Assembly: GCA_964622975.1 (NCBI GenBank) | Contig: CAZUTA010000014.1 | Location: 3,267-67,266 of the forward strand | Length of the DNA stretch: 64,000 nucleotides | Direction: 5' to 3' | From: an uncultured Bacteriovoracaceae bacterium | Lineage (GTDB): Bacteria > Bdellovibrionota > UBA2394 | Part shown: positions 58,995-62,945 of the stretch, piece by piece | Layout: each line of letters begins with the position of its first letter | Numbering within the stretch: position 1 is the first letter of the stretch | Notes under the pieces: model-generated | Told to the model about the DNA's origin: nothing | Databases searched by the model: none | Seen by the model: the letters and a program-made list of their open reading frames with translations, nothing else | Position numbers and translations under genes: made by a program

Positions 58995-60377
58995 ATGGTG
59001 GCCAACCCCCTCAGTTTTTCGAAGGTTCGGATTCTCGTCGTTGATGACGAAGAAAACGCGCGCGAAGGCTTTGAAGACCTTTTACAAACCTGGGGCTACG
59101 AAGTCGCTCATGCCGGCGATGGTAAAGCGGCCCTCGAACTCGTCAAAAAATTTCAGCCTCATGTGATTTTGACAGACCTCGTGATGCCCGAGCTCGACGG
59201 AATGCAACTCCTCGAAAAGCTCAAAGAAGAGAAGCTCGCTTCCGAGGTCACTTTTGTAATTCTTTCGGCTCACGGCAATATTGATTCAGCGGTCGAAGCC
59301 ATCAAAAAGGGTGCTTATGACTTTCTGACAAAGCCAGTGGATGTTGTTCGGCTCAAAATTTTGCTCGAGAATGTGACCAAACGTCTCGGCGTCGAGCAAG
59401 AAATGACGAGCCTGAGAGACAAGGTTCGACGTCTTGGAACTTTTGGCAAACTCAACGGCTCAACACCGCGAATGAAATCTGTCTTCAAGCAGATTCAAGT
59501 CATTGCACCGACGACGGCCTCTGTTCTCATCACGGGAGAGTCTGGAACAGGTAAAGAACTTGTTGCCAAAGCGATCCATACTCAATCAAAGCGCAAGGAC
59601 AAAACCTTCATCGCGATTAACTGCGGCGCTATCCCAGAAACTCTCCTCGAAAACGAACTCTTTGGTCACGAGAAGGGCGCCTACACTGGAGCCAATACTC
59701 AGGAACAAGGCTGTTTTGAAGTGGCTGACGGAGGCACGATTTTTTTGGATGAAATCGGCGAGATGACGCCCGATATGCAGACCAAACTTTTGCGCGTTTT
59801 AGAAAATGGAACATTCCGACGAATCGGTGGCAAAAAAGAATTGCAGGTCGATGTGCGAGTTATCGCGGCCACCAACCGAGATCTCGAAGGCTTGGTTGAA
59901 GATGGAAGCTTTAGAGAAGATCTCTTTTATCGCCTCAATGTTTTTAGCATTAAGCTTCCGCCGCTGCGCGAACGATCCGAAGACCTCCCTCTTTTGGCAC
60001 AGACATTTATCGAGGAGTTTAACTTAAAGAACGACAAGCACATTAAGGGCTTGAGTCGAGAAGCTCTCATCGTCATTAAAAAATATTCCTGGCCTGGAAA
60101 CGTTCGCGAACTCAAAAACACAATTGAGCGCGCCGTGATCGTCTGCCAGGGCGAATTTATTGACGTAGCAGACCTCCCTGAAACGATGACATCTAAGGCT
60201 CATAAGGCCCCTACTGTTGAATTTCGCTTGGGCCAGACGATGGATGATGTGGAAAGAGAGTTTTTGTTTCACACGATCAACTATGTGGATGGAAACAAGA
60301 CGAAGGCGGCCAAAATGCTCAATATCAGCCTTAAAACCCTTCATAATAAGCTCGCCAAGTACAAATCTAGCGTCTGA
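58995..60377 (+). CDS. Sigma-54-dependent response regulator (NtrC family: REC + AAA+ sigma-54 activator + HTH)
   Basis: REC (ILVVDDEEN...D...K), Walker A GESGTGKE, the GAFTGA-equivalent loop HEKGAYTGA (sigma-54 contact), an ESELFGHEKGAF-type motif, and a C-terminal Fis-type HTH. Confidence 0.85.
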   Translation: MVANPLSFSKVRILVVDDEENAREGFEDLLQTWGYEVAHAGDGKAALELVKKFQPHVILTDLVMPELDGMQLLEKLKEEKLASEVTFVILSAHGNIDSAVEAIKKGAYDFLTKPVDVVRLKILLENVTKRLGVEQEMTSLRDKVRRLGTFGKLNGSTPRMKSVFKQIQVIAPTTASVLITGESGTGKELVAKAIHTQSKRKDKTFIAINCGAIPETLLENELFGHEKGAYTGANTQEQGCFEVADGGTIFLDEIGEMTPDMQTKLLRVLENGTFRRIGGKKELQVDVRVIAATNRDLEGLVEDGSFREDLFYRLNVFSIKLPPLRERSEDLPLLAQTFIEEFNLKNDKHIKGLSREALIVIKKYSWPGNVRELKNTIERAVIVCQGEFIDVADLPETMTSKAHKAPTVEFRLGQTMDDVEREFLFHTINYVDGNKTKAAKMLNISLKTLHNKLAKYKSSV

Positions 60378-60545
60378 TGTAATTCTTACTCGATCTCATG
60401 AAATCATATAAGCGCATGAATTTATTGGCATTTTTACCATTTTAGGGGCTTTGTGCGAGAGGCCCATGTAAGAATTACTCAAAATCCGATCCCAAAAACC
60501 GATGGATTTTTGGTAAAATATGAATGATTTCAAATAGTTAAAAAG

Positions 60546-60561
60546 TTGGCATGCGCATTGC
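60546..60561 (+). promoter_or_regulatory. Sigma-54 (-24/-12) promoter candidate
   Basis: TGGCATG-cgca-TTGCA matches the consensus TGGCACG-N4-TTGCW with exact GG-N10-GC spacing. An 11-bp inverted repeat GTAATTCTTAC (60379-60389) / GTAAGAATTAC (60468-60478) lies upstream and could be part of an enhancer (UAS). Confidence 0.4.
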
Positions 60562-60571
60562 ATAAAGAGTC

Positions 60572-60684
60572 ATCACATAGTTTAAGTTTTGGTGGCAACG
60601 AACCCTTAAACCCTTAATCCCTCCCCCAAAGTTGCCACCAGAATTGCAAAGAGCCCGGTGCGCAAAGCCCGGGCTCTTTTTTTT
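60572..60684 (+). ncRNA. Candidate sigma-54-dependent small RNA (~110 nt)
   Basis: Bounded by the sigma-54 promoter and an intrinsic terminator. Contains a perfect 10-bp stem (TGGTGGCAAC/GTTGCCACCA, 60589-60598/60631-60640) with a 32-nt C-rich loop (ACCCTTAAACCCTTAATCCCTCCCCC). There is no ORF. Confidence 0.3.
60650..60684 (+). terminator. Rho-independent terminator
   Basis: 9-bp GC-rich stem AGAGCCCGG/CCGGGCTCT, 10-nt loop, followed by T8. Confidence 0.65.
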
Positions 60685-60717
60685 GGATCTTTATAATCCC
60701 CGATGGATCAGCTGTTT

Positions 60718-61989
60718 CTAAAGGCCCTCAGGCTTAATGAACAAGTAGTCCAAATGCGTGGGCCATGTCGACGAAGCTGCAAAACTCAAATTGAGATACC
60801 TCTCTTTGGTTGATCGATCTGTCGGTGCTTTAGAACCCCAAGGGCTCCACGAGCTCGAAGTGTATGGGAGATAAATCGCCATCCCAGTTGATCGTTTGTA
60901 AGAATTCGATGCCATATTTTGGACCGTCGCATCTCTGAGCGCTTCGAGCAAATCGAAACTCTTTGTCCCAAATGCCATATCACTTTCTGAGCTTGCGACT
61001 CGAATTCTCTTTTCCATTACCAAAGAAACATAGTCACCCAAATCACGATAATCCGAATCAGAGAAATTTAGAGTCTCGTCCGCGGCACTCAACATTTGCT
61101 CGCGAGTCAGACCGCTCTCACTCTGAAGTGACTCGAGCCATACGCCGAGCTTCTCTTTGACGGCTGCCATTTTATTGAGATCAAAAGCAGAGAGCTGGAC
61201 CTGGCGAGTTCCCTGGCTTCCACCGCTGTAGCTCAGATAGTATTGCTCGACAGAGTCCTTAAGAAAGTTCGCAACACTTAATTCATCTCGAGAAGTAAAC
61301 GCACTCAACAAATGATCGTAAGCAAATCCGGGCCCAGGAATGACTTCCTCCGAAGCCAGAAGATAGTCCGCATGTGGAACAAGAACATCTCCGATTTCGA
61401 GCATGGCCATGAGGCAGGCATCAAAACCGACAACATCGATTTTGCGGCCCAGTAACCCTTGAACTTGAAGAAAGGCCTGGTCGAGCTCCATCGTCGTGAT
61501 GTGAGTGCCAGACGAGTAGTCATAAGAGATCCCTTTGACCGCTCTAAAGCCTTCTTGTTTTTTCCATCCTGATCCATGATTCCAAATGATCACGGCATAA
61601 TGTTTGGCCGGATATTTCTCAATTCCCCAAGTCATGAAATCTGCAAGCACACGCCAATCCCCCATGTCTTGTTCAGGCATGTCCATCACGATGGGAGAAT
61701 TAAATGAATTGCGCTCTTCGACATAAGCTTGAGTGGATTTTTCCATATAGACACGAGAGCTTCCCGACTTGTTCCACTCGTCCCACTGGACCACCACATT
61801 GACTTGATCTGTGGAGCCTACTTTTTCCATCTCTCGCATATCATCAAAACCAAATCGCTCGAGATCGTTGTCCGCATTCAGAAAAACGAGAATCGTCCAC
61901 TCCTTTTGTGTTGGTGCTGGTATCTCATCTGCAAAAGTGGCAGATGCAAAAATTGTCGAGAATGCAATCGTGAATACATTGAATTTCAT
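60718..61989 (-). CDS. Secreted clostripain-family (C11) cysteine peptidase
   Basis: Signal peptide MKFNVFTIAFSTIFASATFA. Catalytic dyad contexts IIWNHGSGW (His) and VGFDACLMAMLE (Cys). Confidence 0.6.
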   Translation of the reverse strand: MKFNVFTIAFSTIFASATFADEIPAPTQKEWTILVFLNADNDLERFGFDDMREMEKVGSTDQVNVVVQWDEWNKSGSSRVYMEKSTQAYVEERNSFNSPIVMDMPEQDMGDWRVLADFMTWGIEKYPAKHYAVIIWNHGSGWKKQEGFRAVKGISYDYSSGTHITTMELDQAFLQVQGLLGRKIDVVGFDACLMAMLEIGDVLVPHADYLLASEEVIPGPGFAYDHLLSAFTSRDELSVANFLKDSVEQYYLSYSGGSQGTRQVQLSAFDLNKMAAVKEKLGVWLESLQSESGLTREQMLSAADETLNFSDSDYRDLGDYVSLVMEKRIRVASSESDMAFGTKSFDLLEALRDATVQNMASNSYKRSTGMAIYLPYTSSSWSPWGSKAPTDRSTKERYLNLSFAASSTWPTHLDYLFIKPEGL

Positions 61990-62171
61990 TGAGCCCTTAC
62001 CCCCTTGGTGATGATTTTCTCTCGAACTCTGCATTCCGTCATGAGGGGGGCGAGTCAGCACAATGCAGCCAGTCACTTTGAAATGCGTCACAAAATATCA
62101 CCTCTGAAGCTTGACGAAATGATCGATTGAAGTTGTCACAGGGCCACGCTAGAACCTCAAAAGTGAAAAAG

Positions 62172-62247
<76 letters not shown>

Positions 62248-62264
62248 AATCATTTCCAGACAAC

Positions 62265-62945
62265 TTGCCGCATCATTGGCGTTCTCTGTTGGAAAACGAA
62301 TCGCAGAAAAAATATTTTTTGGACCTTCAAAAATTCTTGCGTTTAGAAAGAAAATCCTCGGCCACTGTTTATCCATCTCGAGAAAACATTTTGCGAGCGA
62401 TTCAGAGTATTGATTTTCCCGATGTGCGCGTCGTGATTCTCGGCCAGGATCCTTATCACGGAGAAAATCAGGCGATGGGATTGTCTTTTGCTGTTCCCAA
62501 CGATCTTCGAGTCAAACCTCCGAGCCTTCAAAATATTTTTAAGGAGATCAAATCAGATCTCGGCATTGAGCTCGATCCCAAGCTCTCCGATCTGACGGGC
62601 TGGGTATCTCAGGGCGTACTCCTTTTGAATACAGTACTCACTGTCCGAAAAGGTCAGCCTTTTTCGCATCGGGATAAGGGATGGGAAGTTTTTACGGATC
62701 AAATCATCCAGCATCTCAATGCCCGAACAGAACCTCTCATCTTTGTTCTCTGGGGAGCCGCTGCTCAAAAAAAGAAACTCCTGATCACCTCTTCTCATCA
62801 CTATGTCCTTGAGAGCCCGCACCCCTCTCCGTTTTCGGCAGATCGCGGATTTTTTGGATGTAAGCACTTCTCTAAGATCAATCACATCCTCTCTCAAAAA
62901 CTTAAAAGCGCACCCATTGATTGGTCGAGAATTTCTCAATCATGA
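62265..62945 (+). CDS. ung: Uracil-DNA glycosylase (family 1)
   Basis: GQDPYH water-activating motif, HPSPFS. The in-frame TTG at 62265 gives about 226 aa. The longer ORF in the track would run through the tRNA-Ala. Confidence 0.8.
   Translation: MPHHWRSLLENESQKKYFLDLQKFLRLERKSSATVYPSRENILRAIQSIDFPDVRVVILGQDPYHGENQAMGLSFAVPNDLRVKPPSLQNIFKEIKSDLGIELDPKLSDLTGWVSQGVLLLNTVLTVRKGQPFSHRDKGWEVFTDQIIQHLNARTEPLIFVLWGAAAQKKKLLITSSHHYVLESPHPSPFSADRGFFGCKHFSKINHILSQKLKSAPIDWSRISQS

Follow-up and report, generated by a model that had tools for sequence, protein, structure and literature searches.

The 313-nt non-coding gap that follows the NtrC-type activator gene in the window (the whole 64-kb stretch of DNA that was analysed) probably harbors the gene for a ~112-nt trans-acting small RNA, which would form the local output of the adjacent two-component system; we put the probability of this reading, including the mechanism outlined below, at roughly 70%. 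The RNA is possibly the only output that the system has. What carries the case is a set of computed features, namely the sequence elements in the gap, the conservation of the RNA, the covariation of its helices, the geometry of enhancer and promoter, and the co-variation of promoter class with a motif of the activator. From these we infer the following course of events. A minimal kinase would phosphorylate the NtrC-type activator, dimers of which would bind two GTAA-N3-TTAC palindromes ~100 and ~190 bp upstream and remodel the sigma-54 RNA polymerase held at TGGCAT-N5-TTGCA. Transcription would start near 60573 and stop at the T8 terminator, producing an RNA whose 15-bp helix carries a 31-nt loop, rich in C and free of G. 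This loop would most likely pair with G-rich ribosome-binding regions and thereby block translation, with the mRNA of a neighbouring secreted clostripain-type protease as the best candidate target.

Table 1. Features of the kinase, activator and small RNA cassette and of the convergent protease gene (positions of the window)
Feature	Position	Strand	Basis and remarks
Minimal histidine kinase gene, 239 aa	58201..58920	+	Pfam HisKA and HATPase_c only; without sensor or transmembrane domain
NtrC-type enhancer-binding response regulator gene, 460 aa	58995..60377	+	Pfam: receiver, sigma-54 AAA+, Fis-type HTH
Distal enhancer site (putative), palindrome GTAATTCTTAC, GTAA-N3-TTAC	60379..60389	.	Sequence pattern and conserved position
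Proximal enhancer site (putative), palindrome GTAAGAATTAC	60468..60478	.	89 bp from distal site
Sigma-54 promoter TGGCAT-N5-TTGCA, TGGCATGCGCATTGCA	60547..60562	+	-24 GG at 60548-49, -12 GC at 60560-61
Predicted small RNA, ~112 nt	60573..60684	+	Start placed by the usual spacing after the -12 element; end in T-tract
Helix P1, 5′ strand	60585..60599	+	Fold, covariation
Apical loop, 31 nt, C-rich, GAACCCUUAAACCCUUAAUCCCUCCCCCAAA	60600..60630	+	Proposed effector/seed region
Helix P1, 3′ strand	60631..60645	+	Fold, covariation
Intrinsic terminator, 11-bp GC-rich stem and T8	60648..60684	+	Fold, inverted-repeat search
Clostripain-family (Peptidase_C11) gene, convergent	60718..61989	-	Pfam; signal-peptide-like N-terminus MKFNVFTIAFSTIFAS
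G-rich ribosome-binding region of the C11 gene, GGGGGUAAGGG	61994..62004	-	Complementary to loop CCCUUAAUCCC(UCCCCC)

Genomic context

The kinase coordinates were mapped from the gene call on an identical contig, L001 (L001 2207-2926). The activator matches Pfam Response_reg, Sigma54_activat (3e-74), AAA_lid_14 and HTH_8, the domain set of NtrC-class enhancer-binding proteins, and its contact motif, GAYTGA, is a conservative variant of GAFTGA. Since it falls below the cut-off of every NCBIfam equivalog, it is best described as an unnamed member of the AtoC/NtrC/ZraR group; like the kinase and the conserved divergent genes, it received no specific NCBIfam name. Around 50 orthologues of the activator were found at 63–85% identity, well set off from the next group, which reaches ≤57%, and the genome relatives that bear a name are MAGs labelled Bdellovibrionota (L015, L016), with one labelled Bradymonadales.

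Orthologous loci share a gene order in which genes on the opposite strand (a methyltransferase, a small protein, a DUF971 protein and an unknown protein) are followed by the kinase, the activator and the non-coding gap. The convergent C11 gene of the window probably begins, judging from its sequence, at ATG 61989 and not at the mechanically assigned GTG 62091; beyond it lie a tRNA-Ala and a uracil-DNA glycosylase (UDG) gene.

Sequence elements in the gap

Every element that the original prediction had named in the gap is present, several of them in amended form. The sigma-54 element, first placed at 60546-60561, lies one nucleotide further to the right. It is the single match to TGGCAY-N5-TTGCW on both strands of the 64 kb (shuffles average 0.11), agrees with the consensus TGGCAC-N5-TTGCW at 10 of 11 positions, and holds its GG and GC exactly 12 bp apart. 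What had been described as an 11-bp inverted repeat does exist, its two 11-nt arms being 100% complementary to each other, and is really a pair of separate palindromic sites, as each arm by itself reads GTAA-N3-TTAC. This pattern occurs twice in the window, both times in the gap between activator and RNA, where 0.28 occurrences would be expected in the whole 64 kb, and the two copies stand at about -100 and -190.

The C-rich stem-loop is likewise there, with dimensions that differ from the 10-bp stem and 32-nt loop given before: P1 comprises 15 pairs, two of them G-U, and closes a 31-nt loop that is G-free after its first base. The strong GC-stem/T8 terminator was described correctly, its 11-bp stem (60648-60658 paired with 60669-60679) running into the T8 at 60677-60684; with a loop above the limit of 8, it escaped a simple terminator scan. 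Folding of the 117-nt stretch yields -45.3 kcal/mol (z = -7.2), a stability reached by none of 200 shuffles. As also foreseen, the region is devoid of ORFs, with none of ≥30 aa on the + strand between 60412 and 60702.

A conserved and covarying RNA family

Homologous loci were drawn from two sources, orthologues of the regulator, which gave 10 loci with the RNA, and a loop-pattern scan of metagenomes. All ten protein-derived loci carry the same hairpin, loop and terminator inside the gap. The pattern scan returned 114 stretches, ~14 of them real and representing 11 distinct RNA sequences; the remaining matches were simple repeats of the CCCTTGAA type and were discarded. Because one pattern-derived RNA (L101) has the same sequence as the protein-derived L004, the two sources together provide 20 distinct RNAs. 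A covariance model of the family, R1, scores these 20 members at 48–98 bits, whereas its next-best matches, at ≤30 bits, are junk; three weak matches at ~29 bits (L149, L159 and L163) lack the helices and were rejected. The window contains a single match to R1, at 60570-60684 with 98.1 bits. Almost all homologues, which come from Bdellovibrionota MAGs and from metagenomes, have an orthologue of this activator as their neighbour.

Automatic alignment of 19 sequences with MAFFT and RNAalifold recovered the terminator only and missed P1, the length of which varies, and R1 was therefore given its structure by hand, next to a separate hand alignment padded with N. In the model alignment (A6), which like the hand alignment (A5) was adjusted to the structure proposed here, pairing reaches 87.5% of cells (65.8% after shuffling), a level that none of 500 shuffles attained and that no slid register comes close to. 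In the same fitted alignment both helices covary, with compensatory changes at 18 of the 20 pairs, and the terminator helix is 98% paired with such changes at five of six. Hand-aligned P1 is 98.5% paired with compensatory changes at 11 of 15 pairs.

The strands of P1 differ near-completely between lineages (GGUGGCAAC/GUUGCCACC vs GAGCAGC/GCUGCUC), while the loop that they present stays almost constant. Mean pairwise identity across nine protein-derived loci is 0.77 in the loop and 0.60–0.63 in the helices. The loop is thus the best-conserved segment of the RNA, with ~25 nt conserved and its ACCCU and CCC columns invariant in 19 sequences; as half of the 20 RNAs were retrieved by a loop-derived pattern, this conservation is an unbiased measure only in the ten protein-derived loci. 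The number of ACCCU units varies, from two in most homologues to three in L144, L153 and L165 and four to five in L011.

Paralogues of the activator from Acidobacteriota and Methylomirabilota, at 50–54% identity among the matches listed, lack the RNA in all 24 loci searched with R1, and the sampled loci mostly have a long ORF 3′ of the activator, not a non-coding gap. Among the genome-contig matches listed in the protein-based scan, only L015 and L016 were useful. In L008 and L009 no RNA was detected even with the search filters off, and a terminator-like remnant is all that is found there. Rfam 15, searched at permissive thresholds, yielded no relevant family for the window (Qrr, CrcZ, NrsZ and GlmY included); its sole match is that of the terminator to Caulobacter CC0196, at 15 bits (gathering threshold 35) and E = 8.3.

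A probable gene of its own

Two rearrangements separate the RNA unit from its usual surroundings. In L004, the promoter has turned round together with RNA and terminator, all three lying on the opposite strand of the same gap. In assembly GCA_016307145.1, 14 nt separate the activator (L209) from the chemotaxis operon that follows it, and the RNA resides on a second contig (L132) with both palindromes and the promoter intact; its neighbours there are ORFs of the lengths expected for the usual UDG and deaminase genes. The two contigs might stem from different strains. The RNA has its own promoter, an intrinsic terminator, no conserved ORF and a covarying structure, which are the marks of a small-RNA gene. 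Together, these sequence-level observations support a stand-alone small-RNA gene that would be driven by the adjacent NtrC-type activator.

Promoter class follows the activator contact motif

Twelve homologous loci have a sigma-54-class promoter, scoring at least 9/11 in every case. In 11 of them the palindromes are 86–91 bp apart, the proximal one ~98–123 bp and the distal one ~185–215 bp upstream of the RNA; only the inverted L004 departs from this, its palindromes being 24 bp apart. Two conserved putative sites next to an activator gene have the configuration of upstream activator sites, which usually lie ~80–200 bp away and to which the regulator would be expected to bind. Seven further loci are without a sigma-54 promoter (≤7/11) and instead have -35/-10 hexamers, 16–17 bp apart, immediately 5′ of the RNA; TTGGAT-17-TATGGT and TTGAGA-16-TATATT are two examples. 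Most of these seven sigma-70-like loci retain the palindromes.

The alignment of the activators accounts for this split through the state of their contact motif, which reads GAFTGA, GSFTGA or GAYTGA in most orthologues and is deleted or degenerate in several. Among the loci in which both features can be read, an intact motif goes with a sigma-54 promoter in nine (the window, L002, L004, L006, L011, L015, L115, L153 and L165), and a lost motif with a sigma-70-like promoter in five (L010, L012, L013, L116 and L210); in L008 the motif is lost and the RNA absent. For this 9:0 versus 0:5 distribution Fisher's exact test, calculated by hand and uncorrected for phylogeny, gives 1/2002. On a neighbour-joining tree of the protein family, at least five separate branches bear a degenerate or deleted motif. 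L116 (P0015-like) is placed inside the intact-motif clade, apart from a basal motif-less clade, which implies at least two independent switches of promoter class among the loci examined. The Walker A/B residues and the receiver aspartate are invariant in all orthologues of the activator. Proteins without the motif have therefore probably kept their activity as regulators, and we infer that they would work with sigma-70 polymerase. Of all the evidence, the co-variation of motif and promoter speaks most strongly for an action of the activator on the promoter of the RNA. The original prediction of a small RNA dedicated to this two-component system thus gains support from four sides: a conserved RNA with covariation, a nearly fixed enhancer and promoter geometry, a unit that stays intact when inverted or unlinked, and a promoter class that tracks the activator motif.

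Loop pairing and a candidate target

Small RNAs that base-pair with G-rich ribosome-binding sites typically expose a loop of this kind, rich in C, free of G and set on a stable helix, and by this likeness the loop would pair with Shine–Dalgarno sequences. A conserved G-run in front of the C11 gene fits such a mode of action. In the window, the site AAGGGGGUAAGGG upstream of ATG 61989 is predicted to form a duplex of ~-20 kcal/mol with loop CCCUUAAUCCC, and a run of five to seven Gs lies near the start codon in 10 of 12 C11 orthologues that adjoin the RNA. When the start regions of three to five neighbouring genes were compared, that of C11 paired best in four of seven loci, or in five with the corrected start in the window, and it stands out in L002, L012, L013 and L210 (z = -2.8 to -3.5). 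Five further loci have a G-rich, strongly pairing C11 start region, and in L158 the sequence GGGAUUAAGGG matches the loop without a mismatch for 11 nt, the UUAAU linker among them. No consistent complementarity to the loop across loci was seen at the starts of the other genes compared (kinase, activator, UDG, histone-fold and divergent genes), the only outlier among them being the kinase of L210 (z = -2.3).

Several results temper this assignment. With every candidate start codon allowed, the C11 site of the window ranks 14th of 55 genes, a ranking that does not discriminate, and neither whole-window duplex scans nor searches for the motifs GGGAGGGA or AAGGGTT brought up a convincing target. 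A C-rich loop would find a partner in any strong ribosome-binding site that is rich in G, and L006, L011 and L015 keep the RNA without an adjacent C11 gene. We therefore name the C11 peptidase mRNA only tentatively as the direct target, at odds well short of even.

Alternative explanations

The variation of the ACCCU unit from two to five copies between homologues makes protein titration the main alternative to pairing. The RNA would then be real and under the same control, and would act through its ACCCUU/CCC repeats as a decoy for an RNA-binding protein, in the manner of CrcZ, which sequesters Hfq, or RsmZ, which sequesters RsmA. Besides the repeated units, the ~25 conserved nucleotides, more than a typical seed, and the uninformative outcome of the unbiased target scans in the window would suit a decoy. 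It is nevertheless an unlikely explanation: no candidate protein with a preference for C-rich RNA was identified, the one short loop compares poorly with the many sites of known sponge RNAs, and the G-run at the C11 start provides a concrete partner for pairing. Far less probable still is that there is no separate RNA and that the hairpins merely end the kinase-activator operon and terminate the convergent genes from both directions, with the promoter-like sequence left unused. The terminator scan found nothing between the activator stop codon and the small-RNA region, and the terminator stem, with an A-run 5′ of it, could serve the convergent C11 transcript as well. However, P1 is unnecessary for termination, the loop is conserved far beyond what a terminator needs, the geometry of promoter and enhancer is maintained in 11–12 loci, and promoter, P1 and terminator move together, as in the inverted L004 and in L132 versus L209.

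A different matter is whether the RNA, once accepted as a small RNA transcribed from a sigma-54 promoter, and Myxococcus Pxr are true homologues that have diverged, which would make the cassette an old module of the former delta-proteobacteria. The pxrK-pxrR-pxr locus likewise combines a kinase and an NtrC-like regulator with a 108-nt RNA that lies 262 nt 3′ of the regulator gene, has a sigma-54 promoter and an enhancer region to itself, finishes with a terminator hairpin and depends for function on its first loop (PMC5568312, PMC5684412). The direct targets of Pxr are still unknown (PMC11928866). A primer-derived fragment of Pxr, positions 13–33, ends in a C-run. The L014/L016 group of activators (55–56% identity; L016 is a Bdellovibrionota chromosome) has a sigma-54 promoter and a different C-rich RNA of ~200 nt, for which Rfam at permissive thresholds yielded no relevant match, with one exact copy of GTAA-N3-TTAC and a near-match upstream of the promoter; this suggests a wider set of such cassettes, and its similar sites would agree with common descent. 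Against homology, the two Pxr fragments share only 6–7-nt words with the RNA of the window, and Pxr is described with three stem-loops, compared with two here. As there is no significant similarity to the two primer-derived fragments and the stem-loop counts differ, membership of the Pxr family is not supported, and we regard true homology as improbable. The fullest version of our preferred reading, with a one-output system, an RNA that silences the C11 protease, repeated rewiring from sigma-54 to sigma-70 and a cassette that may include Pxr, strikes us as rather doubtful when taken as a whole.

Implications

Our results support a small RNA family absent from Rfam and dedicated to a sigma-54/NtrC-type two-component system in uncultured Bdellovibrionota, in an arrangement known from Pxr, Qrr and CrcZ. 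The small RNAs of these predatory, little-cultured bacteria are almost unexplored, and a search of the literature on Bdellovibrio, small RNA and sigma-54 found nothing relevant. The family is a clear addition to the few small RNAs that are dedicated to sigma-54/NtrC-type systems, and it supplies a regulatory motif, GTAA-N3-TTAC, for an uncharacterised two-component system together with a testable candidate target, a secreted cysteine protease. The series of orthologues in which the loss of GAFTGA is accompanied by promoter replacement could further show how enhancer-dependent regulation is gained or abandoned. If true, the rewiring proposed above would be a natural, repeated conversion of one regulator–target pair between two modes of transcription initiation, in at least two lineages.

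Comparison with known systems

The closest analogue is Pxr of Myxococcus xanthus with its pxrK/pxrR (nla19) pair, which has the same order of kinase, activator and ~110-nt RNA; the RNA of the window lies 3′ of a pxrK/pxrR-type pair and has a sigma-54 promoter (PMC5684412), so that the likeness is one of layout. The two differ in their helices, three in Pxr and two here, and belong to different phyla with different neighbour genes.

Sigma-54-dependent small RNAs activated by NtrC-family regulators also include Qrr with LuxO in Vibrio, CrcZ with CbrAB and NrsZ with NtrBC in Pseudomonas, and GlmY with GlrKR in Enterobacteria, and their genes are often found beside the regulator gene. The effectors of these RNAs differ from the C-rich loop described here, CrcZ being an A-rich Hfq sponge and Qrr having a conserved 32-nt seed. 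With respect to the loop, the nearest parallels are RsaE/RoxS with its UCCC motifs, RepG of Helicobacter and CcsR of Rhodobacter, which use unpaired C- or CU-rich loops to pair with G-rich ribosome-binding regions, much as loop UCCCUCCCCC and the CCCUU units here face the run of five to seven Gs of C11 in the predicted pairing. These RNAs are unrelated to that of the window in sequence, structure and regulation, and to our knowledge none of them is sigma-54-dependent.

The change of promoter class has precedents as well. Promoters of glmY and glmZ are of the sigma-54 or the sigma-70 type depending on the species, but there the activator keeps its GAFTGA, whereas here the switch of promoter goes together with loss of the motif. 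Family members without GAFTGA, NtrC of Rhodobacter capsulatus among them, no longer have the loop that contacts sigma-54 and operate with sigma-70 polymerase; the activators described here differ in that the switch would have occurred repeatedly, inside one orthologous group and at the same target gene.

Variation in the activator and its RNA

In the alignment of activator orthologues (A1), the GAFTGA loop, which forms the sigma-54 contact motif, is degenerate or deleted on five or more separate branches within a single orthologous group (P0013-P0052; window residues 231-236), and the receiver aspartate and the Walker A and B residues are invariant despite this loss. The window activator carries the rarer form GAYTGA. 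In the P0046 lineage (loci L008 and L009), the motif has degenerated to EAFSSD and the RNA is missing from the region searched; a terminator-like remnant, GAGCCTTTTCTTTTTGATTTT, alone remains, ahead of the uracil-DNA glycosylase (UDG) gene.

Related activators in loci L014 and L016 are followed by an RNA of about 200 nt that differs from the window RNA, with conserved C-rich segments (CCACUACCUCAUUUCCCCCUAC and CUUCCCCUCCUUCGA), and that matched neither an Rfam family nor R1, the covariance model of the window RNA family. Its sigma-54 promoter reads TGGTAT-N5-TTGCW. Sites of the GTAA-N3-TTAC type, the palindrome of the putative enhancer, are represented there by a single exact copy, which lies upstream of this promoter, and by a near-match. 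Further downstream in L016 lie another pair of sites and another sigma-54 promoter.

Coordinates of features in the window (bare numbers) and in related loci
Feature	Position	Strand	Remark
Activator 3′ coding sequence CCTTAAAACCCTTCAT	60329-60344		
RNA loop sequence CCCTTAAACCCTTAAT	60603-60618		
55-aa ATG ORF	60396-60563	-	Spans enhancer and promoter region
AAT(G/A)ATTTCA box	60523-60532		Across loci, lies 15-35 nt before the -24 element
C11 peptidase start region	61987-62091	-	Longest ORF begins at GTG 62091
tRNA-Ala, anticodon CGC	62172-62247	+	Within mechanical ORF 62127-62945
57-aa gene	L011:4524-4697; L008:4411-4584; L007:4564-4737	-	Between activator gene and RNA position
P0046-lineage region	L008:4585-4830; same region of L009		
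Region with different RNA	L014:4560-4790; L016:5070-5290		3′ of related activators (55-56% identity)
RNA homologue lacking a U-tract	L115:220-335; L131:3808-3923	-	

The window RNA family itself varies at its 3′ end: one homologue, found in L115 and L131, has a 3′ hairpin, GAUGACGAGGCCCGAAAGGGCCUCGGUCAUC, that is not followed by a U-tract, whereas all other homologues have one. As to the origin of the C-rich loop, CCCTTAAACCCTTAAT shares 81% identity across 16 nt, read in the same sense, with CCTTAAAACCCTTCAT at the end of the activator gene, which codes for the invariant LKTLH of the activator HTH. The loop could have descended from a duplicated gene end; the likeness is probably a coincidence.

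Neighbouring genes and source records

Several lineages carry a 57-aa gene, preceded by a TTGACA-like -35 element, in the interval that separates the activator gene from the RNA position, and L015 has a similar minus-strand ORF directly 3′ of its activator gene; the gene is absent from the corresponding position in the window. Its product matches solved proteins of 59-66 aa whose names give a CBFD_NFYB_HMF or DUF1931 domain (PDB 8fvx, 8cmp, 9qt0), and histone models of Pfam and NCBIfam match it with scores below their cut-offs.

Downstream of the RNA, the longest ORF of the clostripain-family (C11) peptidase begins at a GTG, but the ATG at 61989 is likely the true start, given the signal-peptide-like N-terminus and G-rich ribosome-binding site that go with it. 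Since a tRNA-Ala gene lies inside the mechanical ORF beyond, the UDG gene must start further downstream.

A contig of identical sequence is JACCDT011168047.1 (GCA_013565695.1). Very high contig numbers also mark the assemblies behind several relatives (JACCDG, JADMIO, JAEEGI, and a ‘Quagga’ co-assembly), a pattern that suggests bacterial contigs within large host or environmental assemblies.

Promoter region

A box, AAT(G/A)ATTTCA, recurs in several sigma-54-class loci, standing at equivalent positions in L002, L144, L153, L158, and L015; spotted by eye only, it may be a site for an IHF-type DNA-bending protein. The 55-aa ORF on the opposite strand is regarded as spurious. In some sigma-54-class loci, good sigma-70 hexamers matching at 10 of 12 positions overlap the sigma-54 element (TTGACT-16-TATATT in L132, TTGACC-17-CATAAT in L115). 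Such overlap could offer a route to a switch of promoter class, and is similar to the overlapping promoters of glmY.
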